A DNA stretch of 30,000 nucleotides from Rhodocyclaceae bacterium (GTDB lineage: Bacteria > Pseudomonadota > Gammaproteobacteria > Burkholderiales > Rhodocyclaceae), in assembly GCA_013791905.1 (NCBI GenBank), contig VMSX01000030.1:74741-104740 (forward strand), written 5' to 3'. Below, piece by piece: positions 3,649 through 27,568 of this stretch (position 1 is its first letter; each line of letters starts with the position of its first letter). The notes below the pieces were generated by a model, which saw only the letters and a program-made list of their open reading frames with translations, did no database searches and was not told where the DNA came from. The translations under genes were made by a program, and so were the position numbers.

Positions 3649-3658
3649 TGCTTTCGGA

Positions 3659-3806
3659 GCCTTGCCGCCGGGCCGCCCCAAGGCAAGGCGGCACGCGGCG
3701 CCAGCCGCAATCCGCACCCAAGCTTGAATGTGGACGTCCCGTAACAGACGAGCGCAGCGAGCAACAGTCACCTCTCCCGAGAGGGAGGGGCTGGGGGAGG
3801 GCGGGT
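3659..3806 (-). repeat. Structured intergenic repeat, type A, copy A1
   Basis: The plus strand reads GCCTTGCC-gccGGGCCGCCCCAA-GGCAAGGC ... GACGAGCGCAGCGAGCAACAGTCA-CCTCTC..GGGAGG-GGCTGGGGGAGGGCGGG. It fills the whole gap between the DUF58 stop (3807) and the tgpA-like start (3648). Strand is given as the sense in which the C-rich end comes first. Confidence 0.9.
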
Positions 3807-4781
3807 CTAATTTTCATAGAGCGCGAGCGCCTTGAGGCAGGCGTGGGTGTGCTCCGGGCCATGCGCCTGGGGGATATTGCCACCAGGCAAACGCAGGCCC
3901 CAGGACACTCCGGCGGCTTCGGTGTCGAGTACCCAGCGCGTCAATACCGACAGACGTGTTTCGACATCCATGCGCTGCGGCAGCATGTCCCAGTCGAGCC
4001 AGAGCGCCTGTGCAGCCGTGCCGGTGAACTGCTTGGTTTGCAATGGCGCCTCCGGACCTTGTCGCGCGACGGCTTTCCAGGCGACGTGGTGGGGCGGGTC
4101 GCTGGGCTGGTGACGCTTGAGGCCGGCAAAATCCTCATCGCCGCTGTCACCGGGCAGGAGCCCGCCTTCGATGCCACTGAAAGTCGGCGCTGGCGGGACG
4201 GCGCTGGCCGGTTGCGGATAAACCAGGCAGGTCAGGGCAGGCACGGCATAGCTCCAGGCGCGGATCAAACCCAGTGGCCAGAGCGTTTCAATGGTGACGT
4301 GCGGCATGGCGAGCCAGCCGCGATGCGTGGCGGGCTGCGGCAGCAGCACCCGTGCGCTGCCGCCCGGTGGCACGGTCATCGCCATGACCGCCTGTCCGGG
4401 CAGGAACAAGCGCAGCAGATGGCGTGGCCGCGGGTCCGGATTGTGCAGGATCAGCGGAAAGCGCGCGGTGTCGCCGGCAAATACCGGCAGGGCGGCGCCG
4501 ACGGTGATGGAGAGTCCGGCCTGGTTCCGAAAGGTATGCAGGATCGTGGCGACCCCCAGGCCGGCAAGCAGGAAGACCAGACCGTAGCCGAGGCTCAGGT
4601 TGTAATTGATCGCGCCGATCAGCATGACGATCAGCGACACGCCATACAACAGGCCGGCCCGACTCGGCAAGACATAGACGCGGCGCTGCGAGAGGACGAC
4701 GGGCACCGCTTCGGGTGGCCGCACGCGCAGTGCCCAGGCGGTGAAACGGTTGGATAGATTGCGACGCAGAGCAGGCAGCAT
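3807..4781 (-). CDS. DUF58 domain protein (the usual partner of MoxR/TgpA-type genes)
   Basis: Two N-terminal TM helices (LLYGVSLIVMLIGAINYNLSLGYGLVFLLAGLGVATIL). The DUF58-like core is DFAGLKRHQPSDPPHHVAWKAVARQG..LQTKQF. I prefer the start at ATG 4781 (MLPALRRNL). The track start at 4841 would overlap the divergent gene. Confidence 0.75.
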   Translation of the reverse strand: MLPALRRNLSNRFTAWALRVRPPEAVPVVLSQRRVYVLPSRAGLLYGVSLIVMLIGAINYNLSLGYGLVFLLAGLGVATILHTFRNQAGLSITVGAALPVFAGDTARFPLILHNPDPRPRHLLRLFLPGQAVMAMTVPPGGSARVLLPQPATHRGWLAMPHVTIETLWPLGLIRAWSYAVPALTCLVYPQPASAVPPAPTFSGIEGGLLPGDSGDEDFAGLKRHQPSDPPHHVAWKAVARQGPEAPLQTKQFTGTAAQALWLDWDMLPQRMDVETRLSVLTRWVLDTEAAGVSWGLRLPGGNIPQAHGPEHTHACLKALALYEN

Positions 4782-5497: not shown

Positions 5498-5665
5498 CGG
5501 ATTTCAGTTTATTGCAGCAGTCTCGCCGCCGGGCCGCCCCAAGGCGAGACGTCACGCGGCGCCAGCCGCAAACCGCGCCCAAGCTCGACCGGGGGCTCCC
5601 CGTGATAGTCGAGCGTAGCGAGCAACAGTCACCTCCCCGTGAGGGGAGGATGGGAGGGGCGGGCT
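5498..5665 (-). repeat. Structured intergenic repeat, type A, copy A2
   Basis: GTCTCGCC-gccGGGCCGCCCCAA-GGCGAGAC ... GTCGAGCGTAGCGAGCAACAGTCA-CCTCCCC-GTGA-GGGGAGG-ATGGGAGGGGCGGGC. It fills the convergent gap from the stop at 5497 and overlaps about the last 11-12 codons of the HicA-like gene. Confidence 0.9.
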
Positions 5666-5937
5666 CTTTCCGCTTCGTACGCCGATACGCTGATGCCGGC
5701 ATGGGTGAGGAATTCCCGCAGGTGCTTGATGTCCTGCCGGTTGAAGACGCTGCCCTGGTGTGGATGGTGCAGGAAGTATTCGTGGTGGTTGAGCAGCACG
5801 CGAAACCGCGCGCCATGCACCGGTTCGACCGATGCGCCGAGATGATTCAACAGCGACTCGATCTCCCTCCAGTGGATATTGGCGCTGACAGGTTCCTGAA
5901 ACAGACTGCGCAACAGATGCAGATGTTTATGGCTCAT
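5629..5937 (-). CDS. HicA-family toxin-like protein (orphan, no HicB partner seen)
   Basis: 102 aa from ATG 5937: MSHKHLHLLRSLFQEPVSANIHWREIESLLNHLGASVEPVHGARFRVLLNHHEYFLHHPHQ..DIKHLREFLTHAGI. This matches my recollection of the YcfA/HicA pattern (..I.W.dieaL...LGa......gs......g....fHrPHp....k..v..vr.fL...G). The track start at 6060 reads through repeat B1 and the tRNA. Confidence 0.6.
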   Translation of the reverse strand: MSHKHLHLLRSLFQEPVSANIHWREIESLLNHLGASVEPVHGARFRVLLNHHEYFLHHPHQGSVFNRQDIKHLREFLTHAGISVSAYEAERARPSHPPLTGR

Positions 5938-6032: not shown

Positions 6033-6122
6033 TGGCGGAGGTGGTGAGATTCGAACTCACGAACGCCTTGCGACGTTGCCGGTTTTCAAGACCGGTGCAT
6101 TCAACCGCTCTGCCACACCTCC
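6033..6122 (-). tRNA. tRNA-Ser (anticodon UGA)
   Basis: The 90-nt minus-strand sequence is GGAGGTGTGGCAGAGCGGTTGAATGCACCGGTCTTGAAAACCGGCAACGTCGCAAGGCGTTCGTGAGTTCGAATCTCACCACCTCCGCCA. Acceptor stem GGAGGTG/CACCTCC, anticodon stem CCGGT/ACCGG with loop CTTGAAA, long variable arm, T-arm GTGAG-TTCGAAT-CTCAC, encoded CCA. Confidence 0.95.
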
Positions 6123-11218: not shown

Positions 11219-13909
11219 ATGAACTACGAACAGCATTATCTGACCTCTCTCTTCGAGCCGAAATCGATCGCCATCATCGGCGCTTCCGAGACGCCGGGGT
11301 CAATTGGCAGCATCATGGTGCGCAATATCATCGATGGTGCCTTTCCGGGGCGGCTTTTTCTGGTCAACCCGGGCCATGACAAGGTTTTCGGTCAACGGGC
11401 CTACGCTTCGGTCGAGGATATCCCCCAGCGGCTCGATTTGGCGGTGATCTGTACCAAGGCTGAAACGGTGCCGGCCATAATAGATACCTGCGGTCGCGCC
11501 GGCACGCGCAACGCCATCATCATTTCCGGTGGTTTTGCCGAAATGGGTCCACGCGGCGCCAGTTTGTTTCGCTCCATGCTGGAAAGTGCGCGCCGCCACA
11601 ATGTGCGTCTGCTTGGCCCCAACAGCCTCGGCTTGATTCGCCCCGGCAGTTGCGTGAACGTCACCTTCGCGCACAGCAGCGCCAACCCCGGCACGGTCGG
11701 CCTGATCTCCCAGTCCGGTGCGCTCTGCACGGCGATTCTCGACTGGGCGCAGCCCAATAATGTCGGGTTTTCCAACGTCGTTTCGCTGGGTGCCGAGAGC
11801 GATGTGGACTTTGGCGAAGTGCTCGACTACATGGTCGCCGACTCCCGCACCGAAAACATTTTTCTTTACATCGAGGGCATCAAGAACGCGCGGCGCTTCA
11901 TGAGTGCGCTGCGCGCAGCAGCGCGTTGCAAGCCGGTGCTGCTGATCAAGGGCGGGCGCAACCCCGCCGGCAAGCAGGCCGCGCTGTCGCATAGCGGTGC
12001 CTTGCTCGGCTCCGACGACGTCTTCGATGCGGCATTGCGGCGTGCCGGCGTGGTGCGGCTGGGCAATGTCGGCCAGATGTTCGCCGCCGCCCAGGCCCTG
12101 TTCTCGCATTTCCGTCCGCGCGGCAATCGCCTGATGATCGTCACCAACGGCGGTGGTCTCGGCGTGATGGCGGCTGACCATGCTGCCGACATCGGCATTC
12201 CATTGGCCGCGATGTCTGAAGCCACCCTCAAACGCCTGAATGAAGCCTTGCCACCGACCTGGTCGAAAGCCAATCCGATTGACCTGGTTGGCGATGCCGA
12301 TCCGGCGCGTTATGCCAGCACGATCACCGCCTGTCTCGAAGATGACGGGGTCGATGGTGTGCTGGCGATCCTCGCACCGCAGGCGCTGGCCGATCCGACG
12401 CAGACTGCCCGTGCCGTCATTGAGGTGGCGAAAAAGACCGACAAGCCGCTGGTGACCTGCTGGATGGGTGAAGAGCAGGTGCGTGAGGCACGTCTGCTGT
12501 TCCAGGGGGCCGGCATTCCCACCTTCCGGACGACGGATCCTGCCGTCGAACTGTTCTCGCACATTTCCAACTACTACCGCAACCAGCAATTGCTGATGCA
12601 GGCGCCGGCATCGATTTCCGATCACACGCCGCCACGCCTGGAATCGGCGCGCCTGGTGATCGAATCCGCCCTGGCCGAAGGCCGCAAGTCGCTCAACGAA
12701 ATGGAATCGAAGGCCCTGCTGGCGGCCTTCCGCATTCCCATTGCCCAGACGGTGGTGGCGCGCTCGCCTTCCGAAGCCATGGTGCTGGCCGAGGAAATGG
12801 GCCTGCCGGTGGTGATGAAGATCGATTCGCCGCAAATCACCCATAAACTGGATTCGGGCGGTGTGCGCCTCAATCTCAATGCGCTGGTCGCCGTACGCGA
12901 TGCCTACAACCAGATCATCGACGAGGTGAAGAAGAATCGGCCCGATGCGGTCATTCATGGCATCGCCATCGAGCCGATGATCCAGAAGGCCAATGGTCGC
13001 GAACTGATGGTCGGCATGACGAAGGATCCGATTTTCGGTCCGACCGTCATCTTTGGCCCCGGCGGGGCGGGTATCGTGGCCAGCGGCAAGGATCGTGCAG
13101 TTGCCCTGCCACCGCTCAACCGTTTTCTGGTTGCCGATATGCTGGCGTCCACCCGCACCTCGGCACGGCTCGGCGAATTCCGCAACATGCCGCCGGTCAG
13201 CATGGAGGCGCTGGAAGCCGTGCTGCTGCGTGTTTCCGAGATGGTCTGCGAATTGCCCTGGATTCAGGAACTGGACATCAATCCGCTGATCGTCGATGAG
13301 AATGGCGCGGTCGCCGTCGATGCCCGCGTCGTCATCGACAATCTGTCGCTGACTGCCGGGCGCTACGATCACATGGTGATCCACCCCTACCCGTCGCACC
13401 TGGTCACGGAATACCAGGCCAAGGACGGCCGCACTGTCGTGATTCGTCCGATCAGTCCGGAAGATGGCGACCTGGAACAGGACTTCGTCAAGAACCTGTC
13501 GGCAGAAACCAAGTATTTCCGTTTCATGAACACCCTGCGCGAACTGTCACAGGCCCAGTTGGTGCGTCTGACGCAGATCGACTACGACCGCGAAATGGCT
13601 TTCGTCGCCTTGACCGAGGTGGATGGATGTCAGATTGAAGTCGGCGTGGCGCGTTATGCCATGAACCCCGATGGCGAATCCTGCGAATTTGCCGTGGTCG
13701 TCGCCGATGACTGGCAGGGCAAGGGACTGGCGCGCCGGTTGATGGGCGTGATCATCGATACGGCCCGTTCGCGCGGCATCAAGTTCATGAACGGCGATTT
13801 CCTCGCTGAAAACCGCCGCATGATCAAGTTTGTTTCCGGCCTCGGCTTCGTGCTCTCGCCGCATCCCGAAGACCCCGGCCTCAAGCGCGGCGTGCTGGTG
13901 CTTAATTGA
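11219..13909 (+). CDS. pat: Protein lysine acetyltransferase, Pat/PatZ architecture (NDP-forming acyl-CoA synthetase-like domains plus C-terminal GNAT)
   Basis: 896 aa. N-terminal CoA-binding region (KSIAIIGASETPGSIG..), a central ATP-grasp-like region, and C-terminal GNAT motif A (VVADDWQGKGLARRLM). Confidence 0.85.
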   Translation: MNYEQHYLTSLFEPKSIAIIGASETPGSIGSIMVRNIIDGAFPGRLFLVNPGHDKVFGQRAYASVEDIPQRLDLAVICTKAETVPAIIDTCGRAGTRNAIIISGGFAEMGPRGASLFRSMLESARRHNVRLLGPNSLGLIRPGSCVNVTFAHSSANPGTVGLISQSGALCTAILDWAQPNNVGFSNVVSLGAESDVDFGEVLDYMVADSRTENIFLYIEGIKNARRFMSALRAAARCKPVLLIKGGRNPAGKQAALSHSGALLGSDDVFDAALRRAGVVRLGNVGQMFAAAQALFSHFRPRGNRLMIVTNGGGLGVMAADHAADIGIPLAAMSEATLKRLNEALPPTWSKANPIDLVGDADPARYASTITACLEDDGVDGVLAILAPQALADPTQTARAVIEVAKKTDKPLVTCWMGEEQVREARLLFQGAGIPTFRTTDPAVELFSHISNYYRNQQLLMQAPASISDHTPPRLESARLVIESALAEGRKSLNEMESKALLAAFRIPIAQTVVARSPSEAMVLAEEMGLPVVMKIDSPQITHKLDSGGVRLNLNALVAVRDAYNQIIDEVKKNRPDAVIHGIAIEPMIQKANGRELMVGMTKDPIFGPTVIFGPGGAGIVASGKDRAVALPPLNRFLVADMLASTRTSARLGEFRNMPPVSMEALEAVLLRVSEMVCELPWIQELDINPLIVDENGAVAVDARVVIDNLSLTAGRYDHMVIHPYPSHLVTEYQAKDGRTVVIRPISPEDGDLEQDFVKNLSAETKYFRFMNTLRELSQAQLVRLTQIDYDREMAFVALTEVDGCQIEVGVARYAMNPDGESCEFAVVVADDWQGKGLARRLMGVIIDTARSRGIKFMNGDFLAENRRMIKFVSGLGFVLSPHPEDPGLKRGVLVLN

Positions 13910-13910
13910 A

Positions 13911-14099
13911 CCATCCCCCCGCCCCCCTTCCCCGGGAAGGGGGTGGCTGTGGTTCACTGCGCTCGAATATTATGGGCGACTCCGTTGCGACGGTGGTGCG
14001 GCTTGCGCCTGAGGCGCGTGTCCTCACGGCTTGGGGCGGCCCGGCGCCGTGACTGAGCCAAGCGGTGAAATTACAAAAGTCGGCGCTGACAAGACGGCG
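13911..14099 (+). repeat. Structured intergenic repeat, type A, copy A3 (with flank extension)
   Basis: The plus strand is the C-rich-first sense: CCATCCCCCCG-CCCCCTTCC-ccg-GGAAGGGGG..CACTGCGCTCGAA ... TCACGGC-TTGGGGCGGCCCGGC-GCCGTGA, then GGTGAAATTACAAAAGTCGGCGCTGACAAGACGGCG. That last stretch is homologous to the flank of A5. The copy starts 1 nt after the pat stop and overlaps the 5' end of tag. Confidence 0.85.
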
Positions 14100-14657
14100 C
14101 GTTGCGCCTGGTGTGGCGTTGATCCGCTCTATGTCGCCTATCACGACAATGAGTGGGGCGTGCCCTGCCATGACGAGCGCACGCTGTTTGAGTTCCTCAT
14201 CCTCGAAGGCGCGCAGGCCGGACTATCGTGGATCACCATCCTGAAGAAACGCGAGAACTATCGGCGTACCTTTGATGGCTTCGACGTGCAGAAGATTGCC
14301 CGCTACGGCGAGACAGACTTGGCGCGCCTGCTCGGCGATGCCGGCATCGTCAGAAACCGCCTGAAAATATCTGCCGCAATTAACAATGCCCGCGCCACGC
14401 TGGCGCTTTACGACGCTGGCTCAAGTCTTGATGCGCTGTTCTGGCAGTTCGTCGACAACGCCCCGGTCATCAATCGCTGGCAGCGACTCGACGAAGTGCC
14501 CGTCCATACGCCCGTTGCCGTCGCACTGGCCAAGGAACTCAAGCAGCGTGGCTTCCGCTTCGTCGGCCCGACGGTAATTTATTCGCACATGCAGGCGACC
14601 GGCATGGTGAACGACCATCTCGTCACCTGCCCGCGCCACGTTGCGCTGGGCGGTTGA
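14049..14657 (+). CDS. tag: DNA-3-methyladenine glycosylase I
   Basis: RCAWCGVDPLYVAYHDNEWGVPCHDERTLFEFLILEGAQAGLSWITIL is classic Tag. The only in-frame starts before the conserved RC are GTG 14049 and TTG 14031, and both lie inside repeat A3. Confidence 0.88.
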   Translation: MTEPSGEITKVGADKTARCAWCGVDPLYVAYHDNEWGVPCHDERTLFEFLILEGAQAGLSWITILKKRENYRRTFDGFDVQKIARYGETDLARLLGDAGIVRNRLKISAAINNARATLALYDAGSSLDALFWQFVDNAPVINRWQRLDEVPVHTPVAVALAKELKQRGFRFVGPTVIYSHMQATGMVNDHLVTCPRHVALGG

Positions 14658-14664
14658 AGGCGTA

Positions 14665-15066
14665 CTAAGCGGCGCGCGGTTCTATGTGCGTGCGTAGCCA
14701 AGCGGCGAATTCGGCTTCCGGAAGTTCGCCGGCGGCGAGGTCCAGCATGGTGACGACGCACTCGGCATCTCCTGCAACCAGGTCGTAGCCGTTAAGCGCC
14801 AGAAACAGTTCAGTCGCAATTAGCGCAGTACGCTTGTTGCCATCGACGAAGGGATGGTTGCGGACGATGCCGAATCCATATGTTGCAGCGAGTGCGGCGA
14901 CATCGGGATCGTCATAGGCAGCAAGGTTCTCAGCCCGGGCCAACGCGGAATCAAGCAAGCCGGCGTCGCGGGTTCCCGCAGCTCCGCCATGCTCGGCCAA
15001 TTGTGCGCTGTGGGCGGCAATGATCACATTCCGTTGAATCCATACCCAGCGGCTCTCAAGAAACAC
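14665..15066 (-). CDS. doc: Doc (death-on-curing, Fic-fold) toxin
   Basis: ..RWVWIQRNVIIAAHSAQLAEHGG..GIVRNHPFVDGNKRTALIATELFLALNG contains the Fic/Doc motif HxFxDGNKR. The start is either GTG 15066 (MFLESRWVW) or TTG 15081 (track). Both lie within the hairpin of repeat B3. Confidence 0.85.
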   Translation of the reverse strand: MFLESRWVWIQRNVIIAAHSAQLAEHGGAAGTRDAGLLDSALARAENLAAYDDPDVAALAATYGFGIVRNHPFVDGNKRTALIATELFLALNGYDLVAGDAECVVTMLDLAAGELPEAEFAAWLRTHIEPRAA

Positions 15067-15142
15067 GCCGGGCCGTCCCAAGTGTTTCTTGGCCCCTTGA
15101 GGGGAGAACCGAGCGCAGCGAATGTTTGCGGGGTGGGCTCAT
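15056..15142 (-). repeat. Structured intergenic repeat, type B, copy B3 (most diverged)
   Basis: The plus strand reads CAAGAAACAC-gccGGGCCGTCCCAA-GTGTTTCTTG-GCCCCTTGAGGGG..GAGCGCAGCGAATGTTTGCGGGGTGGGCTCAT. It occupies the whole antitoxin-toxin junction. Confidence 0.8.
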
Positions 15143-15363
15143 TTGGCCAGCTCGCGTAAGGCGGCGCGGCGCTTCTTCATGATGCGTTGCGCTTCGCTCA
15201 TCTGTTGCTCAAATGCTGGGTCGTTTGGCGTGACCACATACCCGTCCGGGGTTTCGGTCAGAAAGAGTGATTCGCCTTTCTCCAGCTTCAGATTGGCGAG
15301 GACTTCCTTGGGCAGGATGACGCCGATCGAGTTGCCGATCTGGGTCAGTTTGAGGACGTGCAT
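15139..15363 (-). CDS. AbrB/MazE/SpoVT-type antitoxin (Phd-equivalent partner of Doc)
   Basis: 74 aa: MHVLKLTQIGNSIGVILPKEVLANLKLEKGESLFLTETPDGYVVTP is a typical swapped-hairpin (AbrB-like) antitoxin N-terminus. GGAG lies 7 nt before the ATG. Confidence 0.85.
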   Translation of the reverse strand: MHVLKLTQIGNSIGVILPKEVLANLKLEKGESLFLTETPDGYVVTPNDPAFEQQMSEAQRIMKKRRAALRELAK

Positions 15364-15380: not shown

Positions 15381-15399
15381 GTTATAACAGACGTTATAC
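15381..15399 (-). promoter_or_regulatory. Candidate operator/promoter of the antitoxin-doc operon
   Basis: GTTATAAC-agac-GTTATAC lies 18-36 nt upstream of the antitoxin ATG. The minus strand reads GTATAAC-gtct-GTTATAAC, a near-perfect inverted repeat with embedded TATAAC -10-like hexamers. Confidence 0.4.
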
Positions 15400-15420
15400 T
15401 AAACCGAAGCCCAAGCCATT

Positions 15421-18000
<2,580 letters not shown>

Positions 18001-20369: not shown

Positions 20370-20508
20370 CCTTCCCCCGCCCCCTCCCATGTGAGGGGGT
20401 GAAGTTCCTCGCTGCGCTCGCTTGTTACGGGGTGGTTTTGTTCCTGTCGGGAGCGGGTTGCGGCTTCGCCGCGTGCCGTCCTACCTTGGGGCGGCCCGGC
20501 GGCAGGAC
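20370..20508 (+). repeat. Structured intergenic repeat, type A, copy A4
   Basis: The plus strand is the C-rich-first sense: CCTTCCCCCG-CCCCCTC-ccatgt-GAGGGGG..CCTCGCTGCGCTCGCT ... GTCCTACC-TTGGGGCGGCCCGGC-GGCAGGAC. It starts 4 nt after the phasin stop. A degenerate flank extension (CACAAAGGTCGCTGCG) may reach about 20551. Confidence 0.85.
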
Positions 20509-20554
20509 TGTACTGTTATTCCTTTACCGTTAGGCCTTCACAAAGGTCGCTGCG

Positions 20555-21061
20555 TTAATCCGGTTGCCAGCGTTTTGCAGCGAGGTCGTCTGTCGTGCGC
20601 GCATCGACCCAGCGGCCCCCCTCCGGGGTCTCTTCCTTTTTCCAGAACGGTGCCTGGGTCTTGAGATAGTCCATGATGAATTCGCAGGCGGCGAAGGCGT
20701 CGCCGCGATGCGCGGAGGAAACCCCGACAAAGACGATGCGTTCGCCTGGTAGCAGGCGGCCGACGCGATGGATGACGCGCACCGTGCGCAGTTCCCAGCG
20801 TTTTTGCGCAGCAGCCACGATGTCGGCCAGCGCCTGTTCGGTCATGCCGGGGTAGTGTTCCAGCGTCATCGCCGTTACTGCGGCGGGGCGCTCCGGCTGT
20901 GACGCCGTCTCGCCAGAGCCGGCTTTTTGCTCAGCCAGTTTGTCGGCGCGAACCAGGCCGACGAAGCTGGCGACCGCGCCCGCCATGGGATCTGCGGCGC
21001 TTAGCGCGGCGATCTCGGTGCCGACATCAAAATCGGCAACCTGGACGCTAACCTCTTTCAT
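20555..21061 (-). CDS. moaE: Molybdopterin synthase catalytic subunit
   Basis: ASFVGLVR..TLEHYPGMTE..VGVSSAHRGDAFAACEFIMDYLKTQAPFWKKE. I place the start at ATG 21061 (MKEVSVQV). The track start at 21082 lies inside repeat B2. Confidence 0.9.
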   Translation of the reverse strand: MKEVSVQVADFDVGTEIAALSAADPMAGAVASFVGLVRADKLAEQKAGSGETASQPERPAAVTAMTLEHYPGMTEQALADIVAAAQKRWELRTVRVIHRVGRLLPGERIVFVGVSSAHRGDAFAACEFIMDYLKTQAPFWKKEETPEGGRWVDARTTDDLAAKRWQPD

Positions 21062-21164
21062 GCCCTCGCAGGGCCGCCCCAAGAGGGCATGCGCCCCCCG
21101 TCACCGCTTCGGGTGATTTCATGGGGGGCAGCGAGCTGTTTATTGCGAGCGTGGGGGGCCATTA
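21059..21164 (-). repeat. Structured intergenic repeat, type B, copy B2
   Basis: The plus strand reads CATGCCCT-cgcaGGGCCGCCCCAAG-AGGGCATG, then GCCCCCC-(GTCACCgcttcgGGTGAt..)-GGGGGGC-AGCGAG..TTGCGAGCGTGGGGGGCCATTA. It fills the moaD-moaE junction. Confidence 0.9.
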
Positions 21165-21165
21165 A

Positions 21166-21411
21166 CTATCCACCGGTGACCGGGGGGAAGAAGGCGATCT
21201 CGTCACCGTCGGCAATGTCCGCGTCCATGCCACATACTTTCCGATTCACGGCGGCGCGCAGATTCTTTGTCTTCAGCAGCGCGGGATGTTGCCTGGCGAG
21301 AGCATCGCGCAAGCCGCCGACGGTCGTAACCTCCGGCGGGGGGGCGAAATTTTCGGCAGTTATGCCAATCGCTTCGCTGATGCTGGCGAAATAGAGGATT
21401 TTCAGGTTCAT
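21166..21411 (-). CDS. moaD: Molybdopterin synthase sulfur-carrier subunit
   Basis: 81 aa from ATG 21411 (MNLKILYFASI..), ending ..FFPPVTGG with the diagnostic C-terminal Gly-Gly. Confidence 0.9.
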   Translation of the reverse strand: MNLKILYFASISEAIGITAENFAPPPEVTTVGGLRDALARQHPALLKTKNLRAAVNRKVCGMDADIADGDEIAFFPPVTGG

Positions 21412-21418
21412 GGCTGGA

Positions 21419-22618
21419 CTATAGCAAATCAGCAAAGGAGAGAAAGCGTACGGTATCGCCGGCCTGGAACGACTTGCGCGGCGGATTATCGATCAGGCCG
21501 TCGGCCCAGACGCAGGAGGTCAGCACGCCGGAACCCTGATTGGGGTGCAACTCGGCGCGGCCGTCCGCGGTGATGCGCGCGCGCAGGAATTCGCGCCGGA
21601 TATCGGGCCGCACCCAGTCGGACGCCGACACCAGCTGATGTTCCACGGGCTGACAGCGCTGCGCGCCCATGCACCTGAGAATATACGGCCGCACCAGCAT
21701 CATGAAGGTGACGAAGCCGGAGACCGGATTGCCCGGCAGACCAATGAACGCCGTGCTGCCAATACCGATTTTGCCAAATGCAAGAGGTTTGCCCGGCTTG
21801 ATGCCGATCTTCCAAAGCGCCAGTTCGCCTTCAGCCTCGACGGCAGCCTTGACGTGATCTTCCTCGCCGACCGAGACGCCGCCGGTCGACAGGATCAGGT
21901 CATGGTCCGGCGCCGTGGTTTGCAAAGCCTGGCGCGTTGCAGCCAGATTGTCGGGAATCCGGCCGAGATCCGTGACCACGCAGCCCAGGCCTTCCAGCAG
22001 TGCATGCAAGGTGGGGCGGTTGGAGTTGTAGATGGCGCCCGACGGCAACGGCTCTCCCGGTTCGGCCAGTTCGTCGCCGGTCGACAGCAGGGCAACCCGC
22101 ATGCGCCGCCGCACCGGCAATTGTGCCAAGCCGACTGAGGCCGCCACGCCGAGTTCGGCCGCCCCCAGCTGCGCGCCGGCGGGCAGGACTTCCGCACCCG
22201 GCGCGATGTCTTCCCCGGCGCGCCGGATATGGTTGCTGGGTGTCGGTACTTGATTGATGACGACCCGGCCCTGGTCGTCGAGAATGCAGTGCTCCTGAAT
22301 CACTACGGCATCCGCACCCGCCGGAATCGGCGCGCCGGTGAAAATGCGCGCTGCCGTGCCGGGCAGCAGGGCATGGCCGACTTTGCCCGCCGGGATGCGC
22401 TGCTCGATAGGCAGGCTGACGCCCGTGGTGGTGACATCGGCGCAGCGCACTGCGTAGCCATCCATCGCGCTGTTATCGAGCGGCGGTACGGCGATGGTCG
22501 AGATTTGCGCCTCGGCGAGAATGCGCCCGCGCGCCTCGCTCAGTCCGACCGTCTCGATTGTGTTCACCGGCACGGCGGCCGCCAGCAGTTGCTCAAGTGC
22601 TTGTTCGTAAGTCAGCAT
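21419..22618 (-). CDS. moeA: Molybdopterin molybdotransferase
   Basis: 399 aa. Motifs: PLDNSAMDGYAV, LSTGDEL, STGGVSVGEEDHVK, and IKPGKP. Confidence 0.92.
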   Translation of the reverse strand: MLTYEQALEQLLAAAVPVNTIETVGLSEARGRILAEAQISTIAVPPLDNSAMDGYAVRCADVTTTGVSLPIEQRIPAGKVGHALLPGTAARIFTGAPIPAGADAVVIQEHCILDDQGRVVINQVPTPSNHIRRAGEDIAPGAEVLPAGAQLGAAELGVAASVGLAQLPVRRRMRVALLSTGDELAEPGEPLPSGAIYNSNRPTLHALLEGLGCVVTDLGRIPDNLAATRQALQTTAPDHDLILSTGGVSVGEEDHVKAAVEAEGELALWKIGIKPGKPLAFGKIGIGSTAFIGLPGNPVSGFVTFMMLVRPYILRCMGAQRCQPVEHQLVSASDWVRPDIRREFLRARITADGRAELHPNQGSGVLTSCVWADGLIDNPPRKSFQAGDTVRFLSFADLL

Positions 22619-26441: not shown

Positions 26442-26638
26442 CGCCGTCCAGCCAGCGCCGACTTTTCTGATTTAACCCTCCCCAACTGTAGCCTTGCCGC
26501 CGGGCCGCCCCAAGGCAAGGCGGCACGCGGCGCCAGCCGCAAACCGCACCGCTACCAGAACAAAGCTCCGCGTGATAGACGAGCGCAGCGAGCAACAGTC
26601 ACCTCCCCCGTGAGGGGGAGGATGGGAGGGGGCGGGGC
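26442..26638 (-). repeat. Structured intergenic repeat, type A, copy A5 (with flank extension)
   Basis: The plus strand reads CGCCGTCCAGCCAGCGCCGACTTTTCTGATTTAACC..GCCTTGCC-gccGGGCCGCCCCAA-GGCAAGGC ... GACGAGCGCAGCGAGCAACAGTCA-CCTCCCCC-GTGA-GGGGGAGG-ATGGGAGGGGGCGGGGC. It ends directly against the cysK stop codon (26639). Confidence 0.9.
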
Positions 26639-27568
26639 TTAGACTTCAAGATGCTGGTAGAGCACTGTCGAGAGATAACGTTCGCCAAACGACGGAATGA
26701 TGACGACGATCAGCTTGCCCGCGCTCTCCGGGCGCTTGGCGACTTCGAGCGCGGCCCATACTGCCGCGCCGGAGGAGATGCCGACCAGCAGGCCTTCCTC
26801 GGTCGCCATGCGGCGCGCGGTGGTCAGCGCGTCGTCGTTCTTCACGCGGATGGTCTCGTCGTAGATCTTGGTATTGAGGATGGCGGGCACGAATCCGGCG
26901 CCGATGCCCTGGATCGGATGCGGGCCGCGCTGACCACCCGACAGCACCGGGCTGGCATCGGGCTCGACGGCGATGATCTTGACCTGCTTTTTGGCCTTCA
27001 GCACTTCACCGACGCCGGTGATTGTGCCGCCGGTGCCCACGCCGGAAATGAAGATGTCGACCTGACCATCGGTGTCGCGCCAGATTTCCTCGGCGGTGGT
27101 CTTCCTGTGGATGTCCGGGTTTGCCGGGTTTTCGAACTGCTGCGGGATGAAGTAGCGCGCGTCGGCCGCCGCCAGTTCCTCGGCTTTCTTGATCGCGCCG
27201 GGCATGCCCTCCGGTCCGGGCGTGAGGATCAGTTCGGCGCCATAGGCCTTGAGCAGTAGTTTGCGCTCGCGGCTCATGGTTTCGGGCATGACGAAGGTGG
27301 CCTGGTAGCCGCGCGCCGCGCAGACCATCGCCAGGCCGATGCCGGTGTTGCCCGAGGTCGGCTCCAGAATGATGGTGTCGGGCTTGATCTTGCCGGCCTT
27401 CTCGGCGGCATCGATCATCGCCATGGCGATGCGGTCCTTGACGCTCCCCGCCGGGTTGAAGAATTCGAGCTTCAGCGCGATCGTCGCGCTGTTGTCGGCA
27501 TTCATGCGGTTGAGGCGAACCAGCGGCGTGTGGCCGATCAGTTCGATGATATCGTTCGCGATTTGCAT
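26639..27568 (-). CDS. cysK: Cysteine synthase A (O-acetylserine sulfhydrylase)
   Basis: 309 aa. Motifs: [21 protein letters not shown] (PLP lysine), [22 protein letters not shown]. Confidence 0.93.

Follow-up and report, generated by a model that had tools for sequence, protein, structure and literature searches.

Within a 30,000-nt stretch of a Rhodocyclaceae genome (GenBank assembly GCA_013791905.1, contig VMSX01000030.1, positions 74,741 to 104,740; hereafter the window), a toxin-antitoxin operon carries an 85-nt repeat between its antitoxin gene and its Fic/Doc toxin gene, doc. At the level of sequence comparison, the spacer is proven to be an insertion, and its alignment places it, as a divergent Rhodocyclales subfamily, in the Beta-proteobacterial repeat element (BRE) family, which is named but has hardly been characterised. 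The explanation that we favour, with a probability of roughly 0.7, is that a BRE copy entered the operon at the GTGA overlap of the two genes, that the native start codon of doc was lost, and that Doc synthesis is either strongly reduced and dependent on a ribosome relay or abolished. An earlier note on this DNA had proposed an inserted repeat with a bridging mini open reading frame (mini-ORF) and a stem that pairs with the toxin start; its observation is confirmed and its interpretation is partly supported, a translational relevance of the insert for doc being plausible. The features on which the argument rests are as follows.

15139..15363, minus strand: antitoxin gene (74 aa), an open reading frame (ORF) of the doc_partner / MazE-AbrB type
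14665..15066, minus strand: doc (Fic/Doc toxin) ORF in its current callable form, 133 aa from the element-borne GTG 15066
15058..15142, minus strand: inserted BRE-family repeat of 85 nt, absent from the empty sites and with ends that match the subfamily consensus at unrelated loci
15142..15058, minus strand: sequence of this 85-nt element, ATGAGCCCACCCCGCAAACAT-TCGCTGCGCTCG-GTTCT-CCCCTCAAGGGG-C-CAAGAAACAC-TTGGGACGGCCCGGC-GTGTTTCTT, colinear with published Bordetella BREs
15056..15142, minus strand: bridging mini-ORF of 28 codons plus stop, its ATG element-borne and overlapping the antitoxin stop as ATGA (-4 spacing)
15055..15057, minus strand: GAG at the position of the ancestral GTG start of doc, from the empty-site junctions, the homolog N-termini M/V-S-R-W and an inferred T-to-A change at 15056
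15110..15121, minus strand: family-invariant 12-mer TCGCTGCGCTCG, the anchor of the genome and metagenome scans
15093..15104, minus strand: hairpin 1, CCCC-TCAA-GGGG, from the fold, with an equivalent CCCCC(N3-4)GGGGG in nearly all copies
15057..15091, minus strand: hairpin 2, a 10-bp stem with the conserved 15-nt apical sequence TTGGGACGGCCCGGC, from the RNA fold and from covariation of pairs 2-8 across 139 copies

Read along the minus strand, clpB (18000..15421) is followed by the antitoxin gene (15363..15139), the spacer and doc, which ends at 14665; tag lies on the plus strand, convergent with doc. The antitoxin matches Pfam PF04014 (28.6 bits) and NCBIfam TIGR02609, doc_partner (66.6 bits; cutoff 55.9). 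The toxin matches PF02661 (67.3 bits) and TIGR01550, DOC_P1 (60.7 bits), both above their cutoffs, and its catalytic motif HPFVDGNKR is intact. Its frame is open from TTG 15081 (138 aa), with GTG 15066 (133 aa) inside the same frame, and an identical 133-aa Doc (P0001) is annotated in metagenome-assembled genomes (MAGs). The operon shares with phd/doc type II modules the Fic-fold Doc with HxFx(D/N)GNKR, the small antitoxin upstream, an ancestral 4-nt overlap and translational coupling. It differs in that the antitoxin is of the MazE/AbrB 'doc_partner' type and not Phd/YefM, that a repeat splits the genes, and that the toxin lacks its native start. ORF listing and an inverted-repeat search found all coordinates of the earlier note correct: the ATG at 15142..15140 shares ATGA with the antitoxin stop, the 28-codon ORF that it opens (MSPPRKHSLRSVLPSRGQETLGTARRVS) runs to TGA 15058..15056 and bridges the gap between antitoxin and doc, and GTG 15066 is separated from the antitoxin stop by 72 nt.

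The evidence for insertion comes from empty sites. We located the closest Doc homologs on their contigs and compared the neighbourhoods with the window. Syntenic loci without the insert, with the order clpB-antitoxin-doc-tag-CoA ligase, were found in three related lineages (L001-L004, L141/L142 and L143/L144). Their Doc proteins P0002 (87% identical), P0004 and P0018 share this synteny, and the antitoxin and doc genes overlap there by 4 nt, GTGA, which is the comparison that the earlier note had suggested for its claim of an inserted repeat and which bears that claim out. The empty junction reads ...TTGGCAAAGTGAG(T/C)CGCTGGGTATGG..., and around the native start ..GCAAAGTGAG(T/C)CGCTGG... The 85 extra nucleotides, absent from the empty sites, occur in the window and in four public contigs (L005-L008) that match it at every one of the module's 699 nt, two of them from the MAGs GCA_018900265.1 and GCA_018900655.1. 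The insertion point is exactly the GTGA stop/start overlap, between ...GCCAA and GTGAGCCGC..., and the antitoxin stop TGA (15141..15139) now lies within the first four bases, ATGA, of the inserted element. The element, ATGAGCC...GTGTTTCTT (15142..15058), would have entered between GCCAA and GTGAGCC, its first A regenerating the last Lys codon of the antitoxin and its TGA regenerating the antitoxin stop. A subsequent T-to-A change at 15056 would have destroyed the native GTG, the same base completing the TGA of the mini-ORF.

The motif GAGCC flanks the insert on both sides, so that the junction can also be parsed as classical transposition of an 80-nt element (CACCCC...CTTGA) with a 5-bp GAGCC target duplication. 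ATG 15142 would then be the displaced ancestral start of doc in an ATGA overlap, as many distant Doc homologs do start with ATG, and no secondary mutation would be necessary. However, the three closest empty sites all read GTGA and none ATGA, ATGAGCC precedes CACCCC at many unrelated loci and hence is element sequence, and the duplication length is inconsistent across copies. This parse agrees with the sequence at the junction but is at odds with the family data, and we consider it improbable. We had also entertained ATG 15142 as a native start displaced by either a 5-bp duplication or a 1-nt deletion, and downgraded this candidate on the same grounds, the three GTGA empty sites and the element-borne ATGAGCC. 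Among other family copies, NTGA(GC) stands on both sides in L137, L074, L026, L138 and L130, and many others have no flanking duplication. The history that we favour, entry of an 85-nt element followed by loss of the GTG, would change if a relative closer than L001 had an empty site ATGAGCCGC with a different junction.

The loss of the start codon is indicated by the homologs. We retrieved 120 Doc homologs and inspected the N-termini of the closest 70, nearly all of which begin M/V-S-x-W, two residues before the conserved Trp, whereas the window Doc reads V-F-L-E-S-R-W. From the native start codon onward, L143 has GTGAGCCGCTGG and the window GAGAGCCGCTGG. The native start therefore corresponds to the codon that is now GAG 15057..15055, and not to GTG 15066, which had been taken as the start of doc. 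As judged from these alignments, doc has been shown to have lost the codon at which it ancestrally initiated, and with the antitoxin it no longer has the direct coupling at -4. The right end of the mini-ORF has no start codon at its stop, the nearest being GTG 15066 in frame at a spacing of -11, which would add three residues; its sole Shine-Dalgarno-like sequence is a weak GGGA 9 nt upstream. TTG 15081 lies at -26 to the mini-ORF stop, and GTG 15027 at +28, a start that would cost about 7 N-terminal residues relative to P1 Doc. In reporter work, translational coupling is best at -4 to +3, drops steeply with longer overlaps and is absent at -25 (reviewed in PMC12548453).

The identity of the insert follows from its relatives. 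In the window, the apex motif GCCGGGCCGCCCCAAG has seven copies at 3 or fewer mismatches, compared with 1.5 expected by chance, always flanked by inverted arms; one further 3-mismatch match inside clpB was discounted. An nhmmer search of the element against the window found no second close copy, and only long variants of about 150 nt cluster together. A scan of a genome collection for TCGCTGCGCTCG-N15-45-CTTGGGRCGGCCCGGC gave at least 120 loci, of which the matches listed are almost all from Betaproteobacteria, many with direct tandem arrays, and a metagenome scan for the window's subfamily gave 12 more. Relatives carry the labels Rhodocyclaceae, Sulfuritalea or Sterolibacterium. The subfamily consensus is (A)TGA-GCCCACCCCGAAAACCT-TCGCTGCGCTCG-GTTCTCCCCTCAAGGGGC-AAGAAACT-CTTGGGGCGGCCCGGC-GAGTTTCTT(G). 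The AAGAAAC/GTTTCTT stem and the ATGAGCC left end recur at more than 15 unrelated loci, the full arrangement ATGAGCC-CACCCC...AAGAAAC-loop-GTTTCTT being found at L010, L074, L131, L132, L134, L137, L138 and others. The element keeps its ATG(A) also at loci whose upstream gene ends 5-8 nt before it (L129, L131, L133/L140 and L134), and because it persists at unrelated loci we regard the ATG as element-borne.

BREs were described by Hot et al. (2011, BMC Genomics 12:207, PMC3110155) as GC-rich elements of 75-91 bp that are intergenic, mostly between co-directional genes and sometimes overlapping ORF ends, that occur singly or in direct tandem arrays, and that are widespread in Betaproteobacteria including Rhodocyclaceae; no function was proposed for them there. 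We aligned the window copy with three published Bordetella BREs from the supplement of that paper and with intermediates. The order of modules is shared: arm, GC(C)GGGCCGCCCCAAG, arm', a CCCCC..GGGGG hairpin, GCGCAGCGA and a GGGGG end (PMC3110155). Also shared are the size, 85 nt including the first 4 nt that supply the antitoxin stop, the betaproteobacterial host, and the occurrence as scattered copies and arrays. The window copy differs in its stem, AAGAAAC compared with TTTTTTGCC in Bordetella, and is identical to the Bordetella copies in 53 of 100 aligned columns, below the 70% search threshold of the paper. Exact 12-mer and 16-mer motifs nevertheless link it to Achromobacter- and Bordetella-labelled copies, and we therefore treat it as belonging to a divergent BRE subfamily. 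The passages of Hot et al. consulted here do not describe a covarying stem, a preference for stop/start junctions or a frame from ATG to stop, which are treated below. In the full-text library covered, BRE appeared only in the 2011 description, a review and a passing citation; as text strings in full-text search, the 16-mer loop and the 12-mer gave unrelated matches only, and none for the loop. In various Burkholderiales (L030, L047, L060, L063, L077, L114, L128 and others), 2-3 BRE units stand in direct tandem at a period of 62-108 nt, and the arrays with a period divisible by 3 have single ORFs, 50-66 codons long, that span several of the units.

The BRE paper also reports small RNAs from a BRE-containing intergenic region of Bordetella pertussis (BprJ1/BprJ2), which raises the idea that the spacer itself encodes a small RNA (PMC3110155). 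This is extremely unlikely here: Rfam gave no relevant match for the element at gathering or permissive thresholds, no promoter-like site lies in or beside it, and it sits inside an operon on the coding strand.

The most conspicuous structure of the spacer is a perfect 10-bp inverted repeat, CAAGAAACAC (15091..15082) and GTGTTTCTTG (15066..15057), with 15 nt between the arms, the only one of 8 bp or more within 15030..15170. As it is internal, and the ends ATGAGCCCACC and GTGTTTCTT are not complementary, the element lacks the terminal inverted repeats of a MITE, a miniature transposable element with inverted repeats. The RNA folds into hairpin 2 at -19.8 kcal/mol, compared with a shuffle mean of -9.7 (z = -3.7), and its apex folds further into a UUGGG/CCCGG stem with an ACGG tetraloop; the 131-nt region as a whole is no more stable than its shuffles (z = -0.48), so that the hairpin alone stands out. 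Because its fold beats the shuffles and the same architecture recurs in about 140 related copies, hairpin 2 is not a chance feature. Both TTG 15081 and GTG 15066 are contained and base-paired in it.

The earlier note read this stem as specific to the copy, with an outer arm of doc coding sequence, and pointed to a possible change of the toxin:antitoxin ratio. The corresponding hypothesis is a dedicated translational control device, with a stem that evolved to pair with doc's own start codon. The stem is indeed a perfect inverted repeat that contains the GTG taken by gene callers as the doc start, the only full-length in-frame start, and a hairpin with an upstream ORF is a classic layout for coupling by RNA unfolding. 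Yet it is not copy-specific, since AAGAAAC(N)C...G(N)GTTTCTT is the subfamily consensus at more than 15 unrelated loci in other genomes and metagenomes. None of the empty-site orthologs has the outer arm, of which the last base alone, G 15057, is native; for this reason we also rejected the possibility that it was copied from the target. GTG in place of the consensus GAG occurs in the outer arm of L074, L124, L132, L133 and L140 as well, with the compensating inner-arm base in the window copy, L124, L132 and L140, and at L132 and L133/L140 this variant starts no gene. The GTG-bearing stem was thus inherited from the source copy and did not evolve here for the control of doc. From these comparisons, both arms, ATG 15142, GTG 15066 and TTG 15081 are all assigned to the element. 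With GTG 15066 not the native start either, a dedicated device of this operon is very unlikely, although we accept that the insertion must have altered toxin translation relative to antitoxin.

The favoured reading, a BRE copy that cost doc its start and lowered or ended its translation, could work as follows. The element brings its own 5' ATGA, two hairpins and a U-rich 3' arm. GTG 15066 would be the sole in-frame full-length start of doc and would be buried in the -19.8 kcal/mol stem. Ribosomes that finish the antitoxin would reinitiate at the element ATG (-4), translation of the mini-ORF would melt the hairpin, and after termination at UGA 15058..15056 the ribosomes would back up 8 nt to GTG 15066 (-11 spacing). 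Because this GTG lies in a stable stem with a weak Shine-Dalgarno sequence, only relayed ribosomes would be expected to reach it. The operon would then yield much less Doc than its uninterrupted form, Doc output would still strictly require that the antitoxin be translated, and Doc synthesis may be essentially off.

Full silencing would leave an orphan antitoxin and a toxin pseudogene-in-waiting, intact-looking owing to the recent date of the event. GAG stands where the native GTG was, both candidate starts are paired in hairpin 2, spacings of -11 and -26 couple poorly or not at all (PMC12548453), and the insert-bearing genomes, identical over 699 nt, would have had no time for decay. On the other hand, GTG 15066 is in frame, the mini-ORF stop 8 nt past it is compatible with back-scanning reinitiation, the doc ORF and its catalytic motif are intact, and the very base change that killed the start also made the stop that permits a relay. 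We regard complete silencing as possible but unlikely.

Across the family, three regularities bear on how such insertions act. First, stem pairs 2-8 are 74-94% Watson-Crick in 139 copies, compared with about 30% with shuffled arms. All four pair types occur at each of these positions of the covarying 8-bp stem, with 73 distinct 7-mers in the 139 copies, and the apex is invariant; the covariation indicates that the stem structure is under selection. Second, 68 copies have an upstream gene that runs in the same direction as the element and 16 do not, and no copy classified by orientation lies between divergent genes. Of 80 single copies, 31 carry ATGA at their left end, where control windows give 3-7 of 80; stop codons accumulate at this end and within the outer arm, and ATGs just after the outer arm. 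Third, the distance from the left ATG to the outer-arm stop is a multiple of 3 in 30 of the 39 copies that have both (p = 3e-8, inflated like all family p-values here because the copies are related by descent), although these spans have nine different lengths through compensating changes among three segments. Among 29 copies next to a confident downstream start, 21 have their mini-ORF stop at -13..+1 relative to that start (per-frame null 29%), and exact gene1-ATGA-miniORF-NTGA-gene2 relays exist at L137, L074, L026 and in the window's moaD-moaE spacer.

Repetitive extragenic palindromes (REPs) and their mosaic assemblies (BIMEs) in Enterobacteria and Pseudomonas lie downstream of stop codons, stabilise upstream mRNA and alter relative expression within operons. 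REPs are 20-40 nt long, with conserved stems and a GTAG-type head, often form inverted pairs and are mobilised by RAYT transposases. The elements described here share the placement just downstream of stops in transcribed regions, and differ in that the stem is variable (73 variants) and the apex invariant, in units of 75-90 nt, direct arrays and a conserved ORF frame. By analogy, the doc insert might act on mRNA by protecting the antitoxin segment from 3' exonucleases, or as a processing site or weak terminator, giving more antitoxin than toxin message. Family copies do follow closely on the stop codon of a gene in their own orientation and are never flanked by divergent genes, a terminator-like match (15081..15068) combines the 5-bp apical stem with the U-rich arm, and by our own reading of the sequences the Bordetella BREs show a T-run after hairpin 1 on this strand. 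However, the terminator-like match is at chance level (1 found, 0.9 expected), no U-run follows the full hairpin in the doc copy, and the conserved ATG-to-stop frame is left unexplained. We find an mRNA-level effect doubtful; it is compatible with loss of the doc start and a translational relay and does not exclude them.

Several points, beside the alternative parse of the junction and the shared descent that inflates the family statistics, weigh against the favoured reading. The doc ORF is intact and under overall purifying selection, with a dN/dS between the window and L001 of 0.115 for doc and 0.043 for the antitoxin, values that cover mostly pre-insertion time; all insert-bearing loci are identical. 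Wobble counts, summed per pair, are 17 for G.T and 33 for A.C, and give no hint that the structure works as sense-strand RNA. Where the downstream start lies 16 nt or more past the element, our own tally puts the in-frame ATGA overlap at about 1/3, which is chance. Tandem BRE arrays show no chains of overlapping ORFs, their periods being mixed modulo 3 without bias to 2 mod 3.

The closest analogy to the family layout is found in mycobacterial interspersed repetitive units (MIRUs; Supply et al. 1997), which are 40-100 bp long, lie within operons co-oriented with the genes, and contain a short ORF that at its two ends overlaps the stop and the start of the neighbouring genes, at -4 spacing (PMC12548453, PMC3184786). 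MIRUs are thought to insert at start codons at little cost because this ORF relays ribosomes (PMC12548453, PMC3184786). The BREs described here appear to share with them the operon location, co-orientation, a bridging short ORF and tetranucleotide repeats at filled sites. They belong to another phylum with a different published consensus, so that the likeness is one of analogy and not of membership. Arrays of MIRUs, in their original description, reportedly form chains of overlapping ORFs, whereas the BRE arrays do not. The MIRU-type ORF layout is fully present in the window's moaD-moaE copy, L137, L074 and L026. The left end of the doc copy conforms to it, with ATGA at the antitoxin stop, whereas the right end has no start at the mini-ORF stop; there the relay is defective and the downstream start codon lost. 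The ATG-to-stop frame carried by the element would be a family trait that makes insertions at gene junctions tolerable, as has been proposed for MIRUs. Tentatively, and at somewhat less than even odds, BREs might be the betaproteobacterial counterpart of MIRUs: widespread mobile units of 75-90 nt that home to stops and NTGA junctions, relay ribosomes through their own NTGA, frame and stop, and are recognised by some mobilisation or RNA-binding factor through the hairpin with its invariant 15-nt apex and covarying 8-bp stem. On this view, the relay would have broken in the doc copy and disarmed a toxin.

Other copies in the window show related layouts. A degenerate BRE copy (21058-21165, minus strand) lies between moaD (21435..21166, stop TAG) and moaE (ATG 21061). 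It contains the second bridging mini-ORF that the earlier note had implied, 34 codons long (21162..21058), which starts 3 nt past the stop of moaD and whose own stop overlaps the start of moaE as ATGA. Its outer arm GAGGGCAT holds the first two bases of the moaE ATG, and the ribosome-relay layout is complete. Five variants of about 150 nt (3658-3808, 5519-5669, 13900-14055, 20370-20510 and 26490-26640) have the same apex motif and 12-mer, a C/G hairpin before the 12-mer, an extra segment of about 60 nt with a GCGGC-GCCA-GCCGC hairpin, and stems that differ by compensated changes (GCCTTGCC, GTCTCGCC, GTCCTGCC and TCACGGC). A tRNA gene (6036-6122, minus strand; Rfam RF00005, 61 bits) adjoins the copy at 5519-5669. 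A 24-nt motif, AAAGTCGGCGCTGGNNNNACGGCG, has six copies in the window (4180, 14076, 16426, 20903, 25292 and 26442), compared with 0.02 expected. Copies are found within clpB and at tag's 5' end, and the motif recurs at conserved positions of related Rhodocyclaceae loci. Two copies come directly after a long BRE, and the motif could be an uptake-signal-like or other genome-wide one.

At four copies (15081, 14031, 21082 and 3681) the apex TTG (C-TTG-GGG-CGG-CCC-GGC) is in frame with the downstream ORF, partly because the apex and the 9-nt arm together measure 24 nt. Starts called there give MGRPG or MGRPC N-termini to doc, tag, moaE and the gene that starts at ATG 3648, likely an annotation artefact. 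For tag (14031-14110), no ATG lies near the start of the Pfam domain, which is residue 27 when the ORF is counted from the TTG. Upstream of it, only two starts are in frame, TTG 14031 in a BRE apex and GTG 14049 in a BRE outer arm; public annotations of the identical locus (L005 and L006) give tag as 202 and 195 aa. One further feature lies upstream of the operon, directly after the clpB stop, and may give the antitoxin-doc module a promoter of its own.

15396..15424, minus strand: promoter-like site TTGAAA-17-TAGTAT, sigma-70-like, a consensus match only and a candidate operon promoter

In summary, the locus offers a concrete evolutionary case in which a small interspersed repeat rewired a toxin-antitoxin operon. 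Direct -4 coupling, which fixes the toxin:antitoxin stoichiometry, has been replaced by a hairpin and a relay ORF, and the toxin has lost its own start. The case also exposes an annotation trap, as the 133-aa Doc of public MAGs begins at a repeat-borne GTG, and ORF callers extend several other genes in the window to the TTG of a repeat loop, giving spurious MGRPG N-termini. New leads on the nature of BREs and on how operons tolerate them come from the stem that covaries under a constant apex, from the orientation shared with upstream genes and from the frame kept between ATG and stop. The most interesting lead is the possible MIRU-like reading of the BRE family, an analogy.

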